This document shows positions 10,576-63,579 of a stretch of 64,000 nucleotides of DNA, in pieces; within the stretch, counting starts at the first letter, position 1, and every line of letters starts with the position of its first letter. The DNA is taken from the NCBI RefSeq assembly GCF_003018115.1, contig NZ_CP027457.1; one strand, 5' to 3'. Position numbers and translations under genes: made by a program. The notes under the pieces are model-generated. The model worked only from the letters and a program-made list of their open reading frames with translations, ran no database searches and had not been told where the DNA came from. Source of the DNA: Escherichia coli (GTDB taxonomy: Bacteria; Pseudomonadota; Gammaproteobacteria; Enterobacterales; Enterobacteriaceae).

Positions 10576-10611
10576 ATAAAAAAGCCCCCGGAAGGTGATC
10601 TTCCGGGGGCT
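10576..10611 (-). terminator. his operon attenuator (leader terminator hairpin plus U-run)
   Basis: Inverted repeat agcccccggaag/cttccgggggct followed on the minus strand by a T-run, between hisL and hisG. Confidence 0.85.
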
Positions 10612-10674
10612 TTCTCATGCGTTCATGCACCACTGGAAGATCTGAATGTCTTCCAGCACACATCGCCTGAAAGA

Positions 10675-10725
10675 CTAGTCAGGATGATGGTGATGATGGT
10701 GGTGTTTAAATTGAACGCGTGTCAT
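10675..10725 (-). CDS. hisL: his operon leader peptide (MTRVQFKHHHHHHHPD)
   Basis: Minus-strand 16-codon ORF with seven consecutive His codons directly upstream of the attenuator. Confidence 0.93.
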   Translation of the reverse strand: MTRVQFKHHHHHHHPD

Positions 10726-13393: not shown

Positions 13394-13659
13394 AGAAAAA
13401 TTATTATGACAAGCCTCTCATTCTCTTGTCATTTCCCCCCCATTTAGGCACAATGCGCCGCTGTCAAAAAATGACTAAAAACCGACGTTTCATCAGCGTC
13501 GGTTATTTTTTGCTTCAAACCAATCATTCATACCAAGAGGCCGGGCTTCGTACCGGATAGATATTTACTAAAAATCGACAGTTGTTGTCGCTGAGGAATC
13601 CAAAAAAATGGGGCAATTTTTTGCTTACGCGACGGTTATCACCGTAAAGGAGAATGACC

Positions 13660-21791: not shown

Positions 21792-21968
21792 TTAGCGACA
21801 GACATCTTCTGTATGAAGCAAGGCAAAAAGTTCTGCAACTCTATTGTTATTAACCGCACTGGTTACTAACACGTTGTGCGATCCAGCTTCCCGTAACCAA
21901 ACTTTCACCAAAGATATTTCTTCCATGCTGGCTAAATCTGCTTTGGTGACTACTCCAATGATCGGACG
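21792..21968 (-). pseudogene. Remnant of a EutP/PduV-family small GTPase gene (C-terminal about 58 codons only)
   Basis: Minus-strand frame RPIIGVVTKADLASMEEISLVKVWLREAGSHNVLVTSAVNNNRVAELFALLHTEDVCR*; resembles the C-terminus of EutP (RQIAVISKTDM...). No N-terminal P-loop region is present. Confidence 0.4.
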
Positions 21969-22149
21969 TTAACACGAGGAAGTCTGGCTATTCCACAATG
22001 CCATCTTCTTTCGTAATGGATTGAGAATGCTGGATTTTTAATTATATTACGCGCAGTATTAATCGTGTAAATGTTTTGCGGTCAGCAACGGTGGGGGATC
22101 CATTGTTCTGTTCAATGAATACCATCATACAATTGAATCAGGAGTCGGT

Positions 22150-24526: not shown

Positions 24527-24590
24527 AAACGAAAAGTCTGATAAAAGCTATACTTAACGGATAGCTTTCGCGACTTAGGAAAGGGACATG

Positions 24591-25523
24591 ATGCGTCGTG
24601 TAAATATTCTTTGCTCATTTGCTCTGCTTTTTGCCAGCCATACTAGCCTGGCGGTAACTTATCCATTACCTCCAGAGGGTAGCCGTTTAGTGGGGCAGTC
24701 GTTTACTGTAACTGTTCCTGATCACAATACCCAGCCGCTGGAGACTTTTGCCGCACAATACGGGCAAGGGTTAAGTAACATGCTGGAAGCGAACCCGGGC
24801 GCTGATGTTTTCTTGCCGAAGTCTGGCTCGCAACTCACCATTCCGCAGCAACTGATTTTGCCCGCCACTGTTCGTAAAGGGATTGTGGTTAACGTCGCTG
24901 AGATGCGTCTTTATTACTACCCACCAGACAGTAATACTGTGGAAGTCTTTCCTATTGGTATCGGCCAGGCTGGGCGAGAAACCCCGCGTAACTGGGTGAC
25001 TACCGTTGAACGTAAACAAGAAGCTCCAACCTGGACGCCAACGCCGAACACTCGGCGCGAATATGCGAAACGAGGGGAGAGTTTGCCCGCATTTGTTCCT
25101 GCGGGGCCCGATAATCCCATGGGGCTGTACGCGATTTATATTGGCAGGTTGTATGCCATCCACGGTACCAATGCCAATTTTGGTATTGGGCTCCGGGTAA
25201 GTCAGGGCTGTATTCGTCTGCGCAATGACGATATCAAATATCTGTTTGATAATGTTCCTGTTGGGACGCGTGTGCAAATTATCGACCAGCCAGTAAAATA
25301 CACCACTGAACCAGATGGCTCGAACTGGCTGGAAGTTCATGAGCCGCTGTCGCGCAATCGTGCAGAATATGAGTCTGACCGAAAAGTGCCATTGCCGGTA
25401 ACCCCATCTTTGCGGGCGTTTATCAACGGGCAAGAAGTTGATGTGAATCGCGCAAATGCTGCGTTGCAACGTCGATCGGGAATGCCTGTGCAAATTAGTT
25501 CTGGTTCAAGACAGATGTTTTAA
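24591..25523 (+). CDS. ldtA: L,D-transpeptidase (YkuD domain; links Braun lipoprotein to peptidoglycan)
   Basis: ORF 24588..25523; signal peptide, YkuD catalytic region with HGT...SQGCIRL motif; the K-12 erfK homologue. Confidence 0.9.
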
Positions 25524-25548
25524 GAGCGTTGGTAATTAGAAAGCAAAA

Positions 25549-25568
25549 AGCCTGCTAGAAAGCAGGCT
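25549..25568. terminator. Bidirectional terminator between ldtA and tRNA-Asn
   Basis: Hairpin agcctgctagaaagcaggct flanked by A-run and T-run. Confidence 0.7.
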
Positions 25569-25578
25569 TTTTTGAATT

Positions 25579-25654
25579 TGGCTCCTCTGACTGGACTCGA
25601 ACCAGTGACATACGGATTAACAGTCCGCCGTTCTACCGACTGAACTACAGAGGA
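25579..25654 (-). tRNA. asnV: tRNA-Asn (GUU)
   Basis: 76-nt reverse complement of the canonical E. coli tRNA-Asn, ending CCA, anticodon loop cuGUUaa. Confidence 0.95.
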
Positions 25655-25979
25655 ATCGTGTGAACGGGGCGCATATTAATGGCAGTGCATGGTGATGTCA
25701 AAGGGTGAAATGCATTTTTTTGTTTGTTTGCTGTCAATTTCAACAAAGTGATGAGATTTCAATCTTATTGGTAATGAACCATCGTGGTGCATACCCTCCT
25801 TTTATAGGGCAGGGGAACGCGACTGCTGGTGAAAAGAGCCAATGACGAATCTATCATAATCTCTTATTTGACAGTTGGTTAGCTTGTACATCAACGCCAA
25901 AATAAAACTGGCAAGCATCTTGCAGTCTGGTTGTAAGTAATGGCGGCACTTGGGCCGATTCTCAAAAACCGGAGGCAAC

Positions 25980-26897
25980 ATGAACTTCAGACGCCTGAAA
26001 TACTTCGTAAAAATTGTAGATATTGGTAGCCTGACCCAGGCTGCTGAAGTATTGCATATCGCACAACCAGCGCTCAGCCAGCAGGTTGCCACACTGGAAG
26101 GTGAGTTAAATCAACAACTTTTGATTCGCACAAAACGAGGCGTTACGCCAACAGACGCCGGAAAAATTCTCTATACCCATGCGCGGGCCATTTTACGTCA
26201 GTGTGAGCAGGCCCAACTGGCGGTGCATAACGTTGGTCAGGCATTATCGGGGCAAGTCTCGATTGGCTTTGCGCCAGGAACCGCTGCGTCATCCATCACC
26301 ATGCCCTTATTACAGGCGGTTCGCGCTGAATTTCCGGAGGTCGTTATCTATCTTCATGAAAATAGCGGTGCAGTGCTTAACGAAAAACTGATAAATCACC
26401 AACTCGATATGGCGGTGATTTATGAGCATTCCCCTGTGGCTGGTGTATCCAGTCAGGCTTTACTGAAAGAAGATCTTTTTCTGGTAGGAACTCAAGATTG
26501 CCCGGGGCAAAGCGTTGATGTTAATGCTATTGCGCAAATGAACCTCTTTCTCCCCAGTGATTACAGTGCTATTAGACTTCGTGTTGATGAGGCTTTTTCC
26601 CTACGGCGACTCACGGCAAAAGTCATTGGTGAAATTGAGTCTATTGCCACGCTTACCGCAGCGATTGCGAGCGGCATGGGCGTTGCAGTATTACCCGAAT
26701 CGGCCGCGCGTTCGTTATGTGGCGCAGTAAACGGGTGGATGTCACGCATTACCACACCTTCCATGAGTCTCTCTTTGTCACTAAATTTACCCGCCAGAGC
26801 GAACTTATCACCACAGGCGCAAGCAGTGAAAGAGTTGTTAATGTCAGTGATGAGTTCTCCAGTGATGGAAAAAAGGCAGTGGCAATTGGTGAGCTAA
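25980..26897 (+). CDS. nac: Nitrogen assimilation control protein (LysR family)
   Basis: ORF 25950..26897; start at MNFRRLKYFVKIVDIGSLTQAAEVLHIAQPALSQQV... (305 aa). Confidence 0.93.
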   Translation: MNFRRLKYFVKIVDIGSLTQAAEVLHIAQPALSQQVATLEGELNQQLLIRTKRGVTPTDAGKILYTHARAILRQCEQAQLAVHNVGQALSGQVSIGFAPGTAASSITMPLLQAVRAEFPEVVIYLHENSGAVLNEKLINHQLDMAVIYEHSPVAGVSSQALLKEDLFLVGTQDCPGQSVDVNAIAQMNLFLPSDYSAIRLRVDEAFSLRRLTAKVIGEIESIATLTAAIASGMGVAVLPESAARSLCGAVNGWMSRITTPSMSLSLSLNLPARANLSPQAQAVKELLMSVMSSPVMEKRQWQLVS

Positions 26898-26998
26898 GCG
26901 TTATATCGGGATGGAATAAGATGCGGGTTTTTATTATTTGTTATGCCGGGCATTAGACTTTAACAATAACGGGAAATCTGAACTGCCCGGAGTTTACC

Positions 26999-27949
26999 GT
27001 GAATTTCCAACAACTAAAGATAATCCGCGAGGCTGCACGTCAGGATTACAACCTGACAGAGGTTGCGAATATGCTTTTTACCTCACAGTCAGGCGTCAGC
27101 CGTCATATTCGGGAACTGGAGGATGAACTTGGCATCGAAATATTTGTTCGACGAGGTAAGCGACTGCTGGGCATGACTGAACCGGGCAAAGCATTACTGG
27201 TCATTGCAGAACGTATTCTGAATGAAGCCAGTAATGTTCGTCGGCTTGCAGACCTGTTTACCAACGATACGTCTGGCGTTCTCACTATTGCAACGACGCA
27301 TACTCAGGCACGTTATAGCTTGCCAGAGGTCATTAAAGCTTTTCGCGAACTTTTCCCGGAGGTTCGGCTCGAGCTAATCCAGGGGACGCCACAGGAAATT
27401 GCGACGTTGTTGCAAAATGGCGAAGCTGATATTGGTATCGCCAGCGAGCGTTTGAGTAATGACCCGCAGCTCGTCGCCTTCCCGTGGTTTCGTTGGCACC
27501 ATAGTTTGCTTGTTCCACTCGATCATCCCTTGACGCAAATTACACCGTTGACGCTGGAATCAATAGCGAAGTGGCCGTTAATTACTTACCGACAGGGGAT
27601 TACGGGGCGCTCACGTATTGATGACGCATTTGTCCGCAAAGGTTTGCTGGCAGATATTGTATTAAGTGCGCAGGATTCTGATGTCATTAAAACCTATGTT
27701 GCTCTTGGGCTGGGGATTGGATTAGTTGCCGAACAATCCAGCGGCGAACAAGAGGAAGAGAATTTAATCCGTCTGGATACGCGGCATCTTTTCGATGCCA
27801 ATACTGTATGGTTGGGACTGAAGCGAGGGCAACTTCAACGTAACTATGTCTGGCGCTTTCTGGAACTTTGTAATGCAGGACTGTCAGTTGAGGATATCAA
27901 GCGCAAGGTGATGGAGAACAGTGAAGAGGAAATTGATTATCAGATATAG
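26999..27949 (+). CDS. cbl: CysB-like LysR-family regulator of sulfonate utilisation
   Basis: 316-aa ORF MNFQQLKIIREAARQDYNLTEVANMLFTSQSGVSRHI... Confidence 0.93.
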   Translation: MNFQQLKIIREAARQDYNLTEVANMLFTSQSGVSRHIRELEDELGIEIFVRRGKRLLGMTEPGKALLVIAERILNEASNVRRLADLFTNDTSGVLTIATTHTQARYSLPEVIKAFRELFPEVRLELIQGTPQEIATLLQNGEADIGIASERLSNDPQLVAFPWFRWHHSLLVPLDHPLTQITPLTLESIAKWPLITYRQGITGRSRIDDAFVRKGLLADIVLSAQDSDVIKTYVALGLGIGLVAEQSSGEQEEENLIRLDTRHLFDANTVWLGLKRGQLQRNYVWRFLELCNAGLSVEDIKRKVMENSEEEIDYQI

Positions 27950-27955
27950 CAAAAA

Positions 27956-27976
27956 GCCCGCTATAAAAGCGGGCTT
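27956..27976. terminator. Bidirectional terminator between cbl and tRNA-Asn
   Basis: Hairpin gcccgctataaaagcgggc flanked by A-run and T-run. Confidence 0.7.
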
Positions 27977-27986
27977 TTCAGAAATT

Positions 27987-28062
27987 TGGCTCCTCTGACT
28001 GGACTCGAACCAGTGACATACGGATTAACAGTCCGCCGTTCTACCGACTGAACTACAGAGGA
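27987..28062 (-). tRNA. asnU: tRNA-Asn (GUU)
   Basis: 76-nt sequence identical to the other tRNA-Asn copies. Confidence 0.95.
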
Positions 28063-28222
28063 ATCGCTGTTGAGGCACATCTTAACGGCGAAAAATCTTT
28101 TGTCAAACCCGATTTTTAAATTTCCCAACTGTTTGCCGTTTCTATCAACAGTTTGTTGCATTTGCAGACAATTTGTTGGCGAAAATCTTTGCAGCTTTGC
28201 TGATTCTCCCTCATTATTTGAA

Positions 28223-29710
28223 ATGTGGTTTCACTTTCTGCAATTAAGGTCGGCTTTGAATATCTCCTCTGCTTTACGCCAGGTTGTTCACGGCACTCGC
28301 TGGCACGCTAAACGCAAGAGCTACAAAGTGTTGTTCTGGCGCGAGATAACCCCGCTTGCTGTTCCTATCTTCATGGAGAATGCCTGTGTCCTGTTGATGG
28401 GGGTTCTGAGCACTTTTCTGGTCAGCTGGCTGGGAAAAGATGCGATGGCCGGCGTGGGATTGGCGGACAGCTTCAATATGGTCATTATGGCTTTTTTTGC
28501 TGCTATCGATCTTGGTACTACTGTCGTTGTGGCATTTAGTCTCGGTAAGCGGGATCGACGACGAGCGAGGGTGGCGACGCGGCAGTCATTGGTGATCATG
28601 ACGTTGTTTGCCGTACTGTTGGCAACGCTTATTCATCATTTTGGCGAACAAATTATTGATTTCGTCGCGGGTGATGCCACGACAGAAGTTAAAGCACTGG
28701 CGTTGACTTATCTGGAGCTGACGGTACTCAGTTATCCAGCAGCTGCCATCACTCTTATTGGTAGCGGGGCACTTCGTGGTGCAGGGAATACGAAAATACC
28801 GCTATTGATTAACGGTAGCCTGAATATTCTTAATATTATTATTAGCGGCATATTGATTTACGGCCTTTTCTCCTGGCCGGGACTGGGATTTGTCGGGGCA
28901 GGGCTGGGTTTAACCATTTCTCGTTATATTGGCGCAGTTGCAATTTTGTGGGTGCTGGCGATTGGTTTTAATCCTGCGCTAAGGATTTCGTTAAAGAGCT
29001 ATTTTAAACCGCTGAATTTTAGCATTATCTGGGAAGTCATGGGGATTGGTATTCCCGCGAGTGTCGAATCAGTGTTATTTACCAGTGGTCGGTTATTAAC
29101 CCAAATGTTCGTTGCCGGGATGGGGACCAGTGTTATTGCCGGAAATTTTATCGCGTTTTCAATTGCGGCTCTTATCAACTTACCCGGAAGTGCGCTCGGC
29201 TCTGCTTCTACGATCATTACAGGCCGAAGGTTGGGGGTAGGGCAGATAGCGCAAGCAGAGATTCAGTTGCGGCATGTGTTCTGGCTGTCCACTCTTGGAT
29301 TAACGGCCATCGCCTGGCTAACGGCTCCCTTTGCCGGGCTTATGGCATCGTTTTACACCCAGGATCCACAAGTTAAACATGTCGTTGTGATTCTGATTTG
29401 GCTAAATGCTTTATTTATGCCTATTTGGTCCGCCTCATGGGTGCTACCCGCTGGATTTAAAGGTGCTCGTGATGCCCGTTACGCCATGTGGGTTTCGATG
29501 TTGAGCATGTGGGGTTGTCGGGTTGTCGTCGGTTATGTGCTGGGAATCATGCTTGGCTGGGGTGTGGTTGGTGTCTGGATGGGAATGTTTGCCGACTGGG
29601 CTGTGCGGGCCGTGCTGTTTTACTGGCGAATGGTTACTGGACGTTGGCTATGGAAATACCCTCGATCCGAGCCGCAAAAGTGTGAAAAAAAGCCAGTTGT
29701 GTCGGAATAA
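28223..29710 (+). CDS. yeeO: MATE-family multidrug/flavin efflux transporter
   Basis: ORF 28070..29710; start placed at MWFHFLQL... (ATG 28223, 495 aa) because the longer frame begins only 8 nt from the divergent tRNA. Confidence 0.82.
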   Translation: MWFHFLQLRSALNISSALRQVVHGTRWHAKRKSYKVLFWREITPLAVPIFMENACVLLMGVLSTFLVSWLGKDAMAGVGLADSFNMVIMAFFAAIDLGTTVVVAFSLGKRDRRRARVATRQSLVIMTLFAVLLATLIHHFGEQIIDFVAGDATTEVKALALTYLELTVLSYPAAAITLIGSGALRGAGNTKIPLLINGSLNILNIIISGILIYGLFSWPGLGFVGAGLGLTISRYIGAVAILWVLAIGFNPALRISLKSYFKPLNFSIIWEVMGIGIPASVESVLFTSGRLLTQMFVAGMGTSVIAGNFIAFSIAALINLPGSALGSASTIITGRRLGVGQIAQAEIQLRHVFWLSTLGLTAIAWLTAPFAGLMASFYTQDPQVKHVVVILIWLNALFMPIWSASWVLPAGFKGARDARYAMWVSMLSMWGCRVVVGYVLGIMLGWGVVGVWMGMFADWAVRAVLFYWRMVTGRWLWKYPRSEPQKCEKKPVVSE

Positions 29711-29810
29711 ACGACAAAATGCAGATTATTTCAGCAAACGATTTCAAATTTAAAAAACAGGCTTTGACATTGTGGGTGGGCATCGCTAATATTCGCCTCG
29801 TTCTCACGAT

Positions 29811-29886
29811 TCCTCTGTAGTTCAGTCGGTAGAACGGCGGACTGTTAATCCGTATGTCACTGGTTCGAGTCCAGTCAGAGGAGCCA
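29811..29886 (+). tRNA. asnW: tRNA-Asn (GUU)
   Basis: 76-nt canonical tRNA-Asn on the plus strand, inverted relative to the other three copies. Confidence 0.95.
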
Positions 29887-29948
29887 AATTTTAGTTTTGA
29901 GACATCTCTATGAGTCTCAAGGCAGTTAAAAAATAAAAATTATTTTTA

Positions 29949-29984
29949 CCCGGCCACTTTGTAAAAAAGTGGCCGGGTTTTTTG
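29949..29984 (+). terminator. Intrinsic terminator downstream of plus-strand tRNA-Asn
   Basis: Hairpin cccggccactttgtaaaaaagtggccggg followed by a T-run. Confidence 0.75.
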
Positions 29985-30335
29985 ATTTCTGTGTTTCGTG
30001 CGCTTAATCGAGTCTCACGCTTCAGTGAGCAAATTGCCCCTCCCCAACAGACATCACGATTCACAAGGTCAAAAATTCTGTTCCATGAAGTACCGTACAA
30101 AGATAAAGAGAAAAATGCCTTATGCGGGATGTCGCTGTCGCGTCTTTATCGGGAAACTATACGTAATTACCACTTGCCTTCTGTAATCAGAAAAAGAAGA
30201 CCTGGAATTTTAATAAATATTATTTCTCTGGGGGGATTTTTATAATCAATATGACGAGTTGAAAATTATATTCTTTATAAGAATTATATGAGGTTAAAGA
30301 AATCTGCCGTAAAGACAGATTTCTTTAAAAGATAA

Positions 30336-31052
30336 TTAGAGATTTGCGACGTTATGATAAACTTTTTGTACATCGTCGTCATCTTCAAGGGCATCAACAA
30401 GCCCTTCAAAGATTTCTAAATCTTCTGGGGAAAGCTCAACTTCAGATTGAGCAATCATTTCTAATTCTGTTGTTGAGAACTCAGTGATTCCAGCTGCTTT
30501 TAGAGCCGCGATTCCTTTATGAAGGTCAGTAGGTTCGGTATAAATAACAATGTTACCTTCTTCTTCAGTCACATCACGAACATCAACTTCAGCTTCAAGT
30601 AAAATTTCAAAAATATGGTCAGGGTCTGATCCTTTAAATACAATCACACCAGTATTGTCAAACATATAGCTGACAGAACCTGCCGCTCCGATATTGCCGC
30701 CTTTTTTATTGAAAATTGTGCGAACGTTAGCAATCGTACGGTTAACATTTGAAGTCAATGTCTCGGCGATAATCATTGAGCCATTAGGACCAAAGCCTTC
30801 ATAACGGCCCTGCACGAATGTTTCATCTCCGCCGCCTTTGGCTTTATCAATTGCTTTATCAATAACGTGCTTTGGAACTTGTGCCTGCTTTGCACGTTCA
30901 ATAACGAATTTTAAAGATGTGTTTAATTCTGGATCGGGTTCACCTTGTTTAGCGGCAGCATAGATTTCTACACCGAATTTTGCATAAATTTTAGACGTTG
31001 CACCGTCTTTAGCCGTTTTTTTAGCAACAATATTGGCCCATTTACGTCCCAC
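30336..31052 (-). CDS. yeeN: YebC/PmpR-family transcriptional regulator
   Basis: 238-aa [34 protein letters not shown]... Confidence 0.9.
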
Positions 31053-31394
31053 TGGAATGATCTCCTCGAAAATTTATTTACATTACTGGTAAATCGTTAA
31101 CATGTGTTAATTCGGCATATTATATCATAACAGGAAAAATCTCGTCTATTAGAAATAAAAATATTCTAAAGCCATAATCTTATATTTAATTTTATAAAAA
31201 CTTATATTGTTGGCGGGATTTTTTATAATTGTGTTTTGAAAGCATACTTGCTTTTAATATGTGGAAATCATTAAGACGATAATAAAACTCGTATCCGCCC
31301 AAGGAAGCAAACAGCCCGCGTTTATTGCGGGCTATTTGCCAGATGTCTTACTTAATCCTTCACATCTATTTTTGATAAGAAGGTTCAGAACTTA

Positions 31395-32849
31395 TTATCG
31401 GAACGGCGGCTCATTAAAGGTTCGTAATTTACGTGAATGCAGTCGGTCGCCTTCTGCGCGCAGCAAATCGATCGCCCGAATGCCAATTTGTAGGTGTTCG
31501 GAAATAGCGCCTTCATAAAAACGGTTAGCCTGACCGGGAAGTTTAATCTCGCCATGCAACGGTTTATCTGAAACACACAGTAGTGTCCCGTATGGCACGC
31601 GGAAACGATATCCTTGCGCGGCAATGGTTGCACTTTCCATATCAATTGCTACGGCCCGGCTTAAGTTAAAACGAAGTGCAGAAGCTGAGTAACGTAATTC
31701 CCAGTTCCTGTCATCTGTGGTTACCACAGTACCAGTACGTAGCCGCTGTTTGACTTCCTCACCGGGCCTGCCGCTCACCAGCTTGGTGGCGTCATAAAGC
31801 GCACGTTGCACTTCAGCAATGCTCGGAATAGGAATATCGGGCGGCAGAACCGCATCAAGAACGTGGTCATCGCGTAAATAAGCGTGTGCAAGTACATAAT
31901 CGCCAATGGCCTGACTTTCACGTAATCCGCCACAGTGACCAATCATCAACCAGACATCCGGGCGTAGCACTGCCAGATGATCGCAGATGGTTTTAGCATT
32001 TGACGGTCCCACGCCAATATTCACCAGAGTAATACCCTGACCATCGGCGGTAATTAAATGCCATGCTGGCATCTGGTGTTTTTTCCATGCAAGGTCGGAA
32101 ATGGCTTCTTCTGGCGCTTCGGTTTCGGCGGTGATCCAGTTCCCGCCAGCACAAGAAAGGGCAATGTAGGGACTATCAGGATCGAGGATCTGGCTGCATC
32201 CCCAACGAACGAATTCATCCACATAACGTGTATAGTTGGTAAACAAGACGAACGGCTGAAAATGTTCAACTGGCGTACCGGTATAATGGCGCAACCGTGC
32301 GAGGGAAAAATCGACGCGGCGCGCATCAAAATGCGATAGCGGGGAGAATTCAGTTGGATGATAAATGCCGTCTGCAGTTTCATCGCCAATTTGCGCCAGT
32401 TCTGTTGTCGGGAAATAGCGAGTTAACCCAGCGCTCATTGAGCGATCAAGTGTCAATTCAGAGCCATCGATGACATAAGGATAAGGGATTTCATGCTGCG
32501 AGGGTTGCACCGAGATATGCGCACCATAATCCTGATACAGCAACGTAAGTTGTTCATTGAGATACGAACGAAAGAGAGTAGGGCGAGTAATCGTGGTGGT
32601 GTAGCTGCCTGCGTGAGTAAAACGACCAAATGCGCGCGTTTTAGGGGGATTGGTTGTGCTACCATCCCAGGTTACGGTCAGTGATGGATAGACAAAAAGA
32701 CCTTGTTTGCGGGCGTTTTCATCAGGTAATTCGCCACTTGTAATATATTTGCCAATGGCGTTGCGTAAAGCGACTACAGATTGCTCATACAGCGCGTCGA
32801 GTTTATCCAGTGCCTGAGCTGGGGTCAGACCGGAGCCCTTATTATTCAT
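31395..32849 (-). CDS. amn: AMP nucleosidase
   Basis: ORF 31395..33005; start at MNNKGSGLTPAQALDKLDALYEQSV... (ATG 32849, 484 aa). Confidence 0.92.
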   Translation of the reverse strand: MNNKGSGLTPAQALDKLDALYEQSVVALRNAIGKYITSGELPDENARKQGLFVYPSLTVTWDGSTTNPPKTRAFGRFTHAGSYTTTITRPTLFRSYLNEQLTLLYQDYGAHISVQPSQHEIPYPYVIDGSELTLDRSMSAGLTRYFPTTELAQIGDETADGIYHPTEFSPLSHFDARRVDFSLARLRHYTGTPVEHFQPFVLFTNYTRYVDEFVRWGCSQILDPDSPYIALSCAGGNWITAETEAPEEAISDLAWKKHQMPAWHLITADGQGITLVNIGVGPSNAKTICDHLAVLRPDVWLMIGHCGGLRESQAIGDYVLAHAYLRDDHVLDAVLPPDIPIPSIAEVQRALYDATKLVSGRPGEEVKQRLRTGTVVTTDDRNWELRYSASALRFNLSRAVAIDMESATIAAQGYRFRVPYGTLLCVSDKPLHGEIKLPGQANRFYEGAISEHLQIGIRAIDLLRAEGDRLHSRKLRTFNEPPFR

Positions 32850-32950
32850 GTGTGTCTCCTGTTCCATACAATTACCGCACATCCGATAGTATGTCACAGA
32901 AATGTGAAACAAAAGTGTAAGGCGAAGATCGGATGATCTTCGCCAGGCTA

Positions 32951-34267
32951 TCAAGCGCGTTGACTGTCTTTCATCAACAAAGCGGTCATTGCGGAAATCA
33001 GGCATCCAGCCAGCAAATAAATGGCGACGCTATGCCAGTTCCCGGCAAAGTAAGTGATGAGTGCAGCGGCAATAAAAGGTGTAAATCCACCGCCAACCAC
33101 ACTGGCAACCTGATAACCGACTCCAGCGCCACTATAGCGATAACTGGCACCAAACATTTCGGTAAACATCGGTTGTTGCACACACACCACCATGTCATGC
33201 GCAATGTTTGCCAGCATTATGGAGAAGAAAACTATCCAGAAAATAGATTGTGCTTCAAGCGCCATAAAGAAAGGAAATGCGCTCAACGTTCCGATTAACG
33301 CACCTGTGATATAAACCCTGCGGCGACCAAAACGATCGGCAAGCCAGGCAAAACAGGGAATTGTCAGGCAGCTTAATCCACCTACCAGCAAACCAATATT
33401 AAGGAAAAGTTCGCGCGGTAACCCCATATTCTGGGTTGAATAATTAAGTGCAAAGGCGGTAACGATGTACATCGTCAGCAACTCGCACAGCCGTAGCGCA
33501 ATAATCTTCAGGAAAGCACCAGGATGTCGTAACAGCGCTTCGATAACCGGGATGCGTTTTTTCGCGGCAGCTTGATTATGTTGCTGTTGTTCAAATTCCG
33601 CGGACTCTTCCATGCCATTGCGCACCCACAATGCTCCCAGTACCAGTACGATGCTAAACAGGAAAGGAATGCGCCAGCCCCAGCTTAAAAACTGTTCGTC
33701 AGTCGTCATTATACTGATCAATGAAACCAGTCCGGTTGAAAGCAGTAAACCTACTCCGTAGCCAACTTGTACACCGCTACTGTAAAAGGCTTTTTTATTT
33801 TCCGGCGCACTTTCAACGGAAAGCAACGCCGCGCCTCCCCATTCGCCGCCGACGGCAAATCCCTGAATGGCACGCAGTGTCACCAGCAAAATAGGTGCCC
33901 ACCACCCAATGGTCGAGAATGAAGGAAGAATACCAATCAAGGCTGTCGCGATGCCCATCATCCAGACGGTCAGCATTAACATGCGCTTACGTCCCAGTCG
34001 GTCGCCAAAGTGACCGAAAATGACACCGCCGAGCGGACGGAAAAGGAATCCGACGCCAAAGGTGGCAAATGCGGCGAGCGTTCCCATAGCCGGGCTTACT
34101 TGCGGGAAAAACTCGCGATTAAAAACCAGTGCGGCGGTAATGCCATAGAGTAAAAAATCATACCAGTCGACGACGGCACCAGCGAAACTGCCTAACGCAG
34201 CTCGTCGGGCGCGACTTAACGAAAGCGTCCCTTCATCGGGACGAGTGGAGATGAGCGTGGAGTCCAT
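32951..34267 (-). CDS. shiA: Shikimate:H+ symporter (MFS)
   Basis: 438-aa 12-TM MFS ORF MDSTLISTRPDEGTLSLSRARRAALGSFAGA... Confidence 0.92.
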   Translation of the reverse strand: MDSTLISTRPDEGTLSLSRARRAALGSFAGAVVDWYDFLLYGITAALVFNREFFPQVSPAMGTLAAFATFGVGFLFRPLGGVIFGHFGDRLGRKRMLMLTVWMMGIATALIGILPSFSTIGWWAPILLVTLRAIQGFAVGGEWGGAALLSVESAPENKKAFYSSGVQVGYGVGLLLSTGLVSLISIMTTDEQFLSWGWRIPFLFSIVLVLGALWVRNGMEESAEFEQQQHNQAAAKKRIPVIEALLRHPGAFLKIIALRLCELLTMYIVTAFALNYSTQNMGLPRELFLNIGLLVGGLSCLTIPCFAWLADRFGRRRVYITGALIGTLSAFPFFMALEAQSIFWIVFFSIMLANIAHDMVVCVQQPMFTEMFGASYRYSGAGVGYQVASVVGGGFTPFIAAALITYFAGNWHSVAIYLLAGCLISAMTALLMKDSQRA

Positions 34268-34581
34268 AATGATCCTGTTTGTACTGTCTTTTTATAATTA
34301 GTATGGAAAAGGTAACTCACATTGCTGTCGATCTATAAACGAACCTTATGAGACTACCTCGACAGAGCGCATCTGCAAATGATTTTATGGCTGATGAGCA
34401 GCAACATGAAAAATTCGCTGGAAGATGAAAGCGCAGGAGTTGCTGGTGTTGTTTAAGGATTAAGCAGAGGCCCCACAGGTTCGAGATATGAAACATAAAA
34501 GTCCGCATATGCACAAAATTGCACCCTGATGATTCTGATAGACTGCATTGCATTATAACCAGTAGGGAGGCGAGGTTAGTT

Positions 34582-35634
34582 ATGTTTTTAGCATCATTGT
34601 TGAGACGTATTGTATTTAGTTACTACGATTATAAAGCTTATAATTTCAATATTGAAAAAACAGAGTTTGTTGTTATCCATATTCCCGATCAGATTGGCGA
34701 TGCTATGGCCATCTTTCCTGTTATTCGGGGGCTTGAATTGCATAAAATTAAGCATCTTTTAATTGTAACGTCGACAATTAATTTAGAAGTCTTTAATGCG
34801 CTCAAACTTGAACAGACTAAATTAACATTAGTCACAATGACTATGCAGGATCACGCAACATTAAAAGAAATAAAAGATTTAGCGAAGAACATAACACAGC
34901 AATACGGTACGCCGGATCTTTGTATAGAGGCGATGCGTAAAAAGAACCTGAAAACGATGTTATTTATCAGTCAGTTGAAAGCAAAAACGAATTTTCAGGT
35001 TGTTGGTTTAACCATGAAGTGCTATTCCCCTTTGTGTAAGAACGCGTCCCGGATGGATCAGAATCTCCGGGCTCCTGTACCCATGACATGGGCATTTATG
35101 ATGCGGGAGGCGGGTTTTCCAGCAGTCAGGCCAATATATGAATTGCCACTAAGTGAGGATGTACTCGATGAGGTGCGCGAGGAAATGCGATCGTTAGGAG
35201 CTTACATTGCGCTCAATTTAGAAGGTAGCTCGCAGGAACGTACATTTTCACTATCGATTGCAGAAAATCTAATAGAAAAAATTCAAAGTGAAACAGATAT
35301 ACCAATAGTGATCGTTCATGGACCAAAAGGGGAAGGTAAAGCCAGGGCATTAGTGGATTGTTATAATAATGTCTACCGTTTATCCTTATCACCCTCGATT
35401 AAACGTTCAGCAGCAATCATAAAAGATGCTTATATCGCAATAACTCCTGACACCTCAATATTACATATGGCAAGTGCCTATAATACCCCCGTTGTTGCAA
35501 TTTATGCTGATTACAAAACGCGATGGCCCGCAATGGCCGATGTTTCGGAGTCAGTCGTCGTTGGGCAAAAAATTGACAATATAAGTCTGGATGAATTCGC
35601 AAAGGCATTAAAAAGTGTTTTGGCGAGAATATGA
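34582..35634 (+). CDS. yeeL: Glycosyltransferase family 9 (heptosyltransferase-like) protein, apparently intact
   Basis: ORF 34519..35634; start placed at ATG 34582, which follows a GGGAGG RBS (about 350 aa). C-terminal GT9-type motif (ITPDTSILHMASAYNTPVVAIYADY). AT-rich codon usage. Confidence 0.75.
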   Translation: MFLASLLRRIVFSYYDYKAYNFNIEKTEFVVIHIPDQIGDAMAIFPVIRGLELHKIKHLLIVTSTINLEVFNALKLEQTKLTLVTMTMQDHATLKEIKDLAKNITQQYGTPDLCIEAMRKKNLKTMLFISQLKAKTNFQVVGLTMKCYSPLCKNASRMDQNLRAPVPMTWAFMMREAGFPAVRPIYELPLSEDVLDEVREEMRSLGAYIALNLEGSSQERTFSLSIAENLIEKIQSETDIPIVIVHGPKGEGKARALVDCYNNVYRLSLSPSIKRSAAIIKDAYIAITPDTSILHMASAYNTPVVAIYADYKTRWPAMADVSESVVVGQKIDNISLDEFAKALKSVLARI

Positions 35635-35895
35635 GGCAGTACTTATGAATAGTAATGCCGATCTGTTATGAACGGTGGTGTCATCAATACTCTGAGGCTG
35701 GTCAATCATCACAGAAAACCAGCCTTTAGATCAAAGCAGTACTCACCGAAAATGATCATAGTCACATCGAACGCGATTCTGGCGGTGCAGCATTTTTATT
35801 TATTCATTTTCTGTGAGAGAAGGGCAAGCTCTATAGAGGGAATGTAAAAAAGAGTGCCCCGAATGGAGCACTCTTTAAGAAATTATAACGGAAAA

Positions 35896-43878
<7,983 letters not shown>

Positions 43879-44191
43879 GCTTACCTTCCCTGAACGAGCT
43901 AACATAAATGCGCCCTTTCTAGCACAGCGAAAAAATGTAAATCCTGATAGCAATATGATTGAAAATTAATAACTTTTCGTTAGGCAGTTTTGGGGGTGAG
44001 TTGCAAGAGGGGAGACTACTGAATAACTCAAGTTTTATAATCGAGGGGAAAATGGTGATGGCGTTCATAGCAAAACGCCCTCAACCATAAAGGTCGAGGG
44101 CGCTTAAGATGTTAAAAACCCGCTATCCGTTAAAAAACAATGTTCAACTAAGGTCAGTGACATTGCGCTAAAAAAGCGAATTTTTAGAATT

Positions 44192-44267
44192 TGGCTCCTC
44201 TGACTGGACTCGAACCAGTGACATACGGATTAACAGTCCGCCGTTCTACCGACTGAACTACAGAGGA
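44192..44267 (-). tRNA. asnT: tRNA-Asn (GUU)
   Basis: 76-nt canonical tRNA-Asn; 5'-flank conserved with the copy at 25579-25654. Confidence 0.95.
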
Positions 44268-44367
44268 ATCGTGTGAACGGGGCGCATATTACTTAGCGGT
44301 ACCTTGTCTGTCAACACTAAATTTCATAAGTCATTTCAATTGGTTAATTAATCTGCAAAGTTGTTAA

Positions 44368-45165
44368 TTAATGAACATTCGTCGCCGAAAACGAGTCTGT
44401 ATCATTAGCGTGATGCAGTCTCTGCAAAGGATCTTGTTGATAAAATTGGCAGAAACGTTGCCACAATGAAGGGAAACGAGGAGCAAAAAGTTCTGGGGCG
44501 CTAAAGAAATATTCAGAAAGTACGGCAAAACATTCAGCAGGATCACTGGCAGCATAAGCATCAATGCTCGCCGCATTCTCGCCAACCAATTCGATTTCTT
44601 CCTGAATGTTGTTCATTGCAGCATGAAGATCGTGTTCCCAGCCAGCAACCTCACGCAACGGAATAAAGGGAACACCGCTGGCGCGATCGCCGTTACGGGT
44701 GTCCAGCTTATGAGCGACTTCATGAATAATCAGGTTAAAACCAGAAGCATCAAAAGAATCTTGTATATCCAACCAGTTCAAAACGATAGGCCCTTGCTGC
44801 CAGCTCTGACCTGACTGAACAATACGTTGGTTATGCACCAGACCGATATCGTCTTCCCATTCATCATCGACCACAAATGGCGCAGGATAAATTAAGACTT
44901 CATGAAAACCATCCAGCCATTCCAGTCCTAACTCCAGAACGGGTAGGCAAAATAGAAGTGCTATCCGGCAGCTTCTTAATGAATCCAGTTCAAAGCCCTG
45001 TAAAGGAACAAGCCGCTTTTGCTGTAAAAAACGTTCGGCAAGAGTGACTAATTTGCTTTGTTCCTGTTCCGTCAGACACGTTAAAAGGGGGATCGATAGT
45101 GCTTCCTGCCAGGGAAGGGCAGTTTGATGTGCTGATTCTTGTACTTTCCAGGGCCACTTAATCAT
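44368..45165 (-). CDS. mtfA: Mlc titration factor A (zinc metallopeptidase-like)
   Basis: ORF 44368..45204; start at [28 protein letters not shown]... (265 aa); HEVAH motif present. Confidence 0.9.
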
Positions 45166-45258
45166 CGTTTTGCTCGCAAACTCGTCACTTGAACAAAATT
45201 GCACGGACAGGGACTGTTAAAATGCCAAATTTCCTGGCATCATGGCAACCATCTGAAC

Positions 45259-45348
45259 GGAGAGATGCCGGAGCGGCTGAACGGACCGGTCTCGAAAACC
45301 GGAGTAGGGGCAACTCTACCGGGGGTTCAAATCCCCCTCTCTCCGCCA
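45259..45348 (+). tRNA. serU: tRNA-Ser (CGA)
   Basis: 90-nt GGAGAGATGCCGGAGCGGCTGAACGGACCGGTCTCGAAAACCGG...CTCTCCGCCA with long variable arm, anticodon CGA. Confidence 0.93.
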
Positions 45349-55066: not shown

Positions 55067-55160
55067 AAAAAAAAGCCGGCATCATGCCGGCCCAAAAAAT
55101 ATAAACAAGACGATAAAAGGCTAATAACGGTAGCATCATGACACAGAATAATAAAAAGGT
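55067..55160 (-). ncRNA. Candidate small RNA in the yedS-yedR spacer (possibly RseX); extent approximate
   Basis: Minus-strand intrinsic terminator (gccggcatgatgccggc followed by a U-run) at 55067-55091 with no ORF upstream. The 5' end is not defined. Confidence 0.35.
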
Positions 55161-63492: not shown

Positions 63493-63579
63493 AACACATC
63501 AGATTTCCTGGTGTAACGAATTTTTTAAGTGCTTCTTGCTTAAGCAAGTTTCATCCCGACCCCCTCAGGGTCGGGATTT
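63493..63579 (+). ncRNA. dsrA: DsrA small regulatory RNA (Hfq-dependent; rpoS activator and hns repressor)
   Basis: AACACATCAGATTTCCTGGTGTAACGAATTTTTTAAGTGCTTCTTGCTTAAGCAAGTTTCATCCCGACCCCCTCAGGGTCGGGATTT, with terminal hairpin and U-run, matches DsrA as I recall it. Confidence 0.9.

Follow-up and report, generated by a model that had tools for sequence, protein, structure and literature searches.

The window analyzed here, a 64,000-nt stretch of Escherichia coli DNA, carries four genes for tRNA-Asn(GTT), asnV (25579..25654, − strand), asnU (27987..28062, − strand), asnW (29811..29886, + strand) and asnT (44192..44267, − strand). The locus is the tRNA-Asn cluster of the E. coli core chromosome and holds the genes for a single asparagine isoacceptor. 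We assign a probability of about 0.9 to the reading that its four sites for P4-type integrases are unoccupied and represent the ancestral arrangement, and that the gene copies serve as substrates for homologous recombination. ARAGORN called tRNA-Asn four times, with the anticodon gtt at position 34 in every copy; each copy scored 72.6 bits against the Rfam tRNA model RF00005, compared to a gathering score of 29, and string comparison showed the 76-nt sequence to be identical in 4/4 copies. These results bear out a preliminary description of the window, which had reported four identical tRNA-Asn genes at these positions, one of them inverted; asnW is the sole copy on the + strand. The same 76-nt string is matched exactly in K-12 MG1655 and in 21 further loci that were fetched for comparison. 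When the copies were aligned with 100-nt flanks, identity spanned from 4 nt upstream to 4–5 nt downstream of the gene, with divergence beyond, and the perfect-identity tracts measured 84–105 nt per copy pair. The inverted pair, with asnU as the left and asnW as the right arm, forms a perfect repeat of 85 nt, the arms lying 1,740 nt apart. A 23-nt probe for the tRNA 3′ end, allowing up to three mismatches, hit exactly four sites compared to 0.00 expected from shuffles.

About 20 nt upstream of each copy lies a promoter-like element, TTGACA-17-TAATAT for asnV (25673-25701), asnW (29764-29792) and asnT (44286-44314) and TTGACA-16-TAAGAT for asnU (28079-28106), and each copy is accordingly predicted to be transcribed separately from a strong sigma-70-like promoter of its own. 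Downstream, asnV is followed by a terminator hairpin (25545-25572), asnU by a GC-rich hairpin and then a T run (approximately 27950-27980), and asnW by a terminator at 29948-29978. The latter lies in the AT-rich spacer of about 450 nt between asnW and yeeN (29887..30335), on the side where islands insert at asnW, which is empty here. The spacer is conserved in 4,969 genomes, and a Pfam search of this segment and of the small open reading frames (ORFs) beside the tRNA genes revealed no recognizable ORF or domain. With respect to replication, the GC skew of the window is positive on the + strand, which suggests a fork moving from left to right; on that direction, asnV, asnU and asnT would be oriented head-on and asnW and yeeO co-directionally, which would set three of the four tRNA-Asn genes, presumably strongly expressed, against the fork.

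Collinearity with the annotated strain GF3-3, which is 98.9% identical over a region of 24.9 kb, gives the order cobUST-ldtA-asnV-nac-cbl-asnU-yeeO-asnW-yeeN-amn-shiA-GT9-yeeJ-asnT-mtfA-serU, where GT9 is a family-9 glycosyltransferase gene. MG1655 shows the same gene order, and the K-12 cluster asnT-asnW-asnU-asnV agrees with the window in genes, order, relative orientations and neighbors (nac, cbl, yeeO, yeeN, amn, shiA). Nucleotide divergence from K-12 is about 2%, with queries across the asnU and asnW junctions matching K-12-derived records at 98.1% and 97.7%, respectively. In the reference set of 5,426 complete E. coli genomes used throughout, the 24.9-kb region found a match in 5,425; the whole stretch was present at ≥80% in one collinear place in only 1,206 genomes. 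Two genes of LysR-type regulators, nac (nitrogen assimilation; 25980..26897, + strand) and cbl (26999..27949, + strand), both delimited by the ORF list and GF3-3 collinearity, lie between asnV and asnU. The preliminary description had placed them correctly between two copies, although its term paralogous is only loosely right: Nac and Cbl share 24% identity (E = 2e-10) and are both LysR-type, but distant paralogs only.

Attachment sites and island occupancy

The yersiniabactin island (the high-pathogenicity island, HPI) and the colibactin (pks) island typically insert at this locus. The islands known at asn genes, HPI at asnT, pks at asnW, asnU or asnV, and those of the ICEEc1 type (PMC8209727, PMC8461471), use the same four attachment sites, whereas in the window all four are empty, with no integrase, attachment-site (att) duplication or cargo. 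A tblastn search of the whole 64 kb with the P4-type integrases of pks, HPI and strain KL53 returned noise only (best E = 0.61), and blastn with the ends of HPI and of the pks island gave no match in the window. As for an att direct repeat, 17-nt and 23-nt probes of the tRNA 3′ end, with up to three mismatches, matched only the four genes themselves. At the boundaries between tRNA genes and core sequence there are no cargo or mobility genes (ybt, clb, type IV secretion system), and the junctions are contiguous with those of island-free genomes. What adjoins the tRNA 3′ ends is core sequence: ldtA at asnV (L,D-transpeptidase; 24588..25523, + strand; ORF list and GF3-3 collinearity), cbl at asnU, the AT-rich spacer followed by yeeN at asnW, and at asnT a yeeJ-type gene (35896..43953, − strand), which encodes an inverse autotransporter or immunoglobulin (Ig)-like repeat adhesin of 2,685 aa. 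The earlier statement that no copy is flanked by an integrase or an island thus stands on the 3′-end probes, the integrase search and the island-end search.

Occupied sites look different. In UM146, the genes int-ybtS-ybtX-ybtQ of HPI lie right at the asnT 3′ end; in two FDAARGOS strains, int-clbS-clbQ of pks lie right at an asn gene; and LR-58-1 carries at an asn gene an HPI of the integrative and conjugative element (ICE) type with a type IV secretion system. In such island-bearing strains, the P4-type integrase and the tRNA 3′ end are separated by about 160 nt; the comparison proposed in the preliminary description thus sets integrases next to the tRNA genes there against core genes in the window. 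An island-free copy of this kind is useful as a reference for empty attachment sites.

To quantify occupancy, native junctions were searched in the reference set with queries of 1,276 nt, comprising the tRNA gene and 600 nt of flank to its left and right, and were counted if ≥80% was covered in one place. Because this rule also scores insertion sequence (IS) elements and the like as not native, the resulting occupancy figures are upper bounds on island presence. The native junction was found in 5,179 genomes at asnU (95.4%), 4,969 at asnW (91.6%), 4,663 at asnV (85.9%) and 2,644 at asnT (48.7%). The broken matches at asnT end at the tRNA 3′ end, and 2,111 of the 5,426 genomes (38.9%) have a junction that links an HPI-type integrase to asnT and mtfA. 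In the examples that were inspected, the pks island adjoins an asn gene. The view that asn loci are hot spots of island integration, put forward in the preliminary description, is therefore upheld by the HPI-type integrase at asnT and by pks beside an asn copy. HPI has been described as fixed at asnT, and pks as residing chiefly at asnW and also at asnU or asnV (PMC8209727); our occupancy counts and the placement of pks agree with that work and with PMC8461471. A cluster of similar copy number and spacing exists in Klebsiella pneumoniae, where element-free strains have four tRNA-Asn copies within 16.4 kb that are the sites of ICEKp, and where integration frequency is strongly unequal among the copies (Lam et al. 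2018, PMC6202445); our occupancy counts also fit this parallel, in which the likeness, in a different genus, concerns copy number, spacing and the unequal use of the copies.

Rearrangements between the tRNA-Asn copies

The junctions expected from recombination within the tRNA genes were built synthetically and searched in the 5,426 genomes. An exchange between asnU and asnW, which inverts yeeO, gives a left junction cbl-asn-yeeO 3′ end, found in 32 genomes, and a right junction yeeO 5′ end-asn-yeeN, found in 34; the inversion is thus present in 32–34 genomes (0.6%), and the native state in 99.4% of scorable genomes. The deletion of nac and cbl by exchange between asnV and asnU (ldtA-asn-yeeO 5′ end) was found in 35 genomes. 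For inversion of the block between asnV and asnW, the right junction (nac 5′ end-asn-yeeN) was found in 266 genomes and the left junction (ldtA-asn-yeeO 3′ end) in a single one, SE15; the two block-inverted genomes inspected carry a pks island at the left junction, so that the right junction is needed for detection. Inversion of the 14.3-kb yeeN-yeeJ block between asnW and asnT was seen in 0 of the 5,426 genomes, searched by its left junction in the island-free form only. Matches to the yeeO inversion, the nac-cbl deletion and the right block junction covered 100% of the synthetic sequence at 96.9–99.5% identity. In all of these, the breakpoints lie within the long identical repeats, inverted pairs having led to inversion and direct pairs to deletion. 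The copies do recombine in nature, rarely and without obvious consequence.

Rearrangements that had been predicted from sequence alone thus occur. The preliminary description had proposed that asnU and asnW could invert the intervening yeeO segment, and the orientation of yeeO in the population, which if fixed would in its words refute the idea, is not fixed; the deletions it expected between directly repeated copies are likewise found, as in MEI3O-23, the one deletion-junction genome inspected, which shows a clean loss of nac, cbl and one asn gene. The tRNA-Asn cluster, its role as a hot spot and one inversion between copies are already known. Inversion of the 4.3-kb asnV-asnU-asnW block has been reported in pks-positive B2 strains (Auvray et al. 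2021, PMC8209727; Wami et al. 2021, PMC8461471). That block inversion likewise ends in two inverted asn genes, the window itself having the native orientation, whereas the yeeO-only inversion involves a different copy pair, is smaller and is usually not beside an island. In open-access papers we found only the larger block inversion and not that of yeeO alone, an absence that is weak evidence. What is added here at the population-genomic level is small, namely the inversion of yeeO alone and the loss of nac-cbl, at about 0.6% each. Together, the per-site occupancies and the three rearrangement frequencies quantify how often a core region is remodeled by four tRNA repeats of 76 nt; beyond such bookkeeping their significance is slight. 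A practical caution is that names such as asnW in papers on islands depend on the block orientation of the strain.

Clean inversion with the rest collinear is seen in PSJ-36, and clean inversions are present as well in TC24, LD27-1, PigCaeca_1, CRECJHTL34, AH65, Santai and ES7. We compared local haplotypes of 8 inverted and 9 native loci by aligning their flanks (5.2 kb) and, after re-orientation, the 1,748-nt segment, with orientation checked by shared k-mers. The inverted loci are interspersed among the native ones on at least five local haplotype backgrounds. Compared to the native MG1655, the inverted PSJ-36 has 3 nt changed in the 5.2-kb flanks and none in the inverted segment, and the flanks of the inverted PigCaeca_1 and the native EC6 are 5 nt apart; other haplotypes, 40–114 substitutions away, are represented by TC24, by LD27-1 and by the group of AH65, Santai and ES7. 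This distribution indicates at least five independent inversion events, as an approximate count. AH65, Santai and ES7, which come from different studies, share one haplotype with 0–2 nt between them and are all inverted, and about 20 of the 34 right-junction matches have scores equal to those of this group. Given such near-identical inverted genomes from different studies, the inversion looks stably inherited and not rapidly switching.

Some genomes carry compound structures. In SE15, the nac-cbl-asnU-yeeO block is inverted, and a frameshifted partial second yeeO lies beside asnW. KL53 has a truncated yeeN beside asn-nac-cbl-asn-yeeO(inverted)-asn-integrase, with ISVsa5 adjoining. A single exchange between two tRNA genes is not sufficient for either structure. 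In LR-58-1 (fetched locus 1-43060), the ICE-type HPI with its type IV secretion system, ybt cluster and integrase abuts asn(−)-yeeO(inverted)-asn(+)-yeeN, and nac-cbl is absent; no fewer than two exchanges between asn copies are required for this arrangement. The records OZ547226 and OZ547155 have right-junction match scores equal to that of LR-58-1. The difference between 32 left and 34 right junctions is probably explained by KL53, with an island to the right of the segment, and by the LR-58-1 group, with an ICE-type HPI on the left and without nac-cbl.

Recombination, inheritance and ancestry of the cluster

The invertible segment (28063..29810), 1,748 nt long, includes the promoters of asnU and asnW and, between them, yeeO and its upstream region. 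The yeeO gene (28223..29710, + strand; start from GF3-3 collinearity) encodes a MATE-family efflux transporter (Pfam MatE, E = 8e-56). The asnU promoter (28079-28106) points leftward and yeeO and the asnW promoter (29764-29792) rightward, while asnU and asnW themselves point outward and form the repeat arms. In the mechanism that we propose, the identical tracts of 84–105 nt would serve general, RecA-type homologous recombination, by which inverted pairs invert and direct pairs delete the DNA between them, in the manner of other dispersed repeats such as rrn operons or IS copies. An exchange between asnU and asnW would flip the 1,748-nt cassette with both tRNA promoters and yeeO. The breakpoints in perfect repeats, together with clean cases that lack a nearby recombinase, lead us to infer homologous recombination as the probable route, and a perfect tract of 84–105 nt is enough for RecA-dependent exchange in E. 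coli, which counts against a role of integrases.

Such a role would imply that inversions and deletions arise by site-specific recombination, with P4-type integrases of HPI, pks and ICEs acting on two asn attB 3′ ends. We consider this unlikely as the general explanation, yet possible in individual cases, particularly for the block inversion linked to pks. These integrases do target the 3′ end of tRNA-Asn genes (PMC8209727, PMC6202445), and all reports of the asnV/asnW block inversion concern pks-positive B2 strains, where it was suggested to have come about together with the insertion of pks (PMC8209727). In the inspected examples the pks integrase adjoins the rearranged block, and KL53 and LR-58-1 combine the yeeO inversion with an adjacent integrase. 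However, the clean yeeO inversions have no integrase within the 7–10 kb fetched, and QL57EC is inverted, yet its asnT site is empty. Furthermore, recombination of attB with attB, in the absence of the arm sites of attP, is not a normal tyrosine integrase reaction.

Inversion turns the locus into a mirror image of its native form, in which both tRNA genes keep their place and orientation and receive each other's promoter. The yeeO gene again reads toward a co-oriented tRNA gene, with only its direction relative to replication changed. This mirror-image outcome suggests that the yeeO-only inversion is probably close to neutral, and near-neutrality would explain why it recurs and can become fixed in lineages, yet is rare. 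Conversely, a recurrent and apparently undescribed inversion, fixed in at least one lineage, could have a phenotype, and its spread within lineages might have been selected. We find this rather improbable; were it true, the change of yeeO from co-directional to head-on with replication and the exchange of the asnU and asnW promoters would be possible sources of such a phenotype. Among other genomes, yeeO is interrupted by IS1 in WP4-W18-ESBL-08, AHM9C61I, CP53 and 8GC, and the annotation of the O157:H7 strain F7508 lists it as a pseudogene that contains an internal stop. These cases suggest that part of the species can do without yeeO. A programmed phase-variation switch of the fimS or hin type was also considered and rejected, given the stable inheritance of the states and the lack of a recombinase. 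The genes flanking the segment are only nac, cbl, yeeO and yeeN, with no integrase-like sequence and no dedicated recombinase detected beside it, in searches that were not aimed at serine invertases.

The island-free state of the window could itself be secondary, a former island having been lost by precise excision. Such excision rebuilds an intact attB and leaves no trace, so that the lack of scars is uninformative about a past island, and ICE-type HPI with mobility genes does occur at asn sites in E. coli. Against island loss, the common HPI of E. coli is described as having lost its right direct repeat and being immobile (PMC8209727). The empty junctions, moreover, show 96.1–99.7% identity among the matches listed and are shared by thousands of genomes, including K-12. 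We regard island loss as improbable. With empty junctions common to thousands of genomes, the ancestral state is the simplest explanation.

Several points weigh against the view that unoccupied ancestral sites recombine through their homology. The asnW/asnT inversion was seen in 0 genomes although the identical tract is equally long, which means that repeat length alone does not set the frequencies and that distance or selection must matter too. As the haplotype trees draw on 7 kb of local sequence and not on whole genomes, the number of independent events is approximate. Where the repeats are identical, the position of the crossover is not discernible, and a RecA mechanism is presumed. Finally, occasional mis-orientation in assemblies is possible, as one record, NZ_CP196293.1, breaks at the locus. 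That the genomes with inverted yeeO are all assembly artefacts at a repeat-flanked segment, with no real polymorphism behind them, is very improbable: the inverted calls do come from assemblies and one assembly does break there, but the left (32) and right (34) junctions occur in nearly the same set of genomes, the related AH65, Santai and ES7 from different laboratories are all inverted, the repeat of only 85 nt is below ordinary sequencing read length, and the related block inversion was reported independently by two groups (PMC8209727, PMC8461471). Judging by the matching junction counts, the sharing within clades and the shortness of the repeat, most inverted assemblies are likely to be genuine.

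The record NZ_CP196293.1 is a 5,969-bp linear ‘plasmid unnamed2’ of AH21A060 that consists of the chromosomal fragment cobU′-cobS-cobT-ldtA-asn-nac-cbl-asn-yeeO′, the assembly having broken at the asn repeats. Matches to tRNA-Asn in records labeled as plasmids were also considered as mobile copies; this idea was rejected, the one of 14 places that was inspected being this misfiled chromosomal fragment.

Neighboring genes and other features

The interval from asnW to yeeJ (30336..35634) contains the core genes yeeN, amn and shiA, all on the − strand, and the family-9 glycosyltransferase gene on the + strand. Besides MatE in yeeO, Pfam identified YebC in yeeN and Glyco_transf_9 in the glycosyltransferase gene. 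The latter (34519-35634) is uninterrupted in the window, with an intact ORF of 371 aa, whereas it is a pseudogene in two comparison genomes, having an internal stop in PSJ-36 and being truncated beside an IS5-like element in LR-58-1. The yeeJ-type ORF (35896-43953), apparently the most variable part of the region, contains tandem repeats with a period of 609 nt at 39410-40927 and of about 310 nt at 37882-38536; in other genomes it is annotated as YeeJ or merely as ‘Ig-like domain-containing protein’. The distal border of the cluster (44368..45348) is formed by mtfA (− strand) and serU, a tRNA-Ser(CGA) gene at 45259-45348 (+ strand).

On the other side, GF3-3 has a truncated pseudogene of the EutP/PduV family just upstream of cobU (record positions 2793-2969, corresponding to about 21800-22000 of the window). 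GF3-3 has no prophage between tmaR and cobU, and the window appears to be likewise without one; in K-12 this interval presumably contains the CP4-44 prophage. Elsewhere in the window, Rfam reported four RNA features above their gathering scores, namely the His operon leader (10576-10699, − strand) and the small RNAs STnc240 (13439-13513, + strand), RseX (55068-55157, − strand) and DsrA (63493-63579, + strand).

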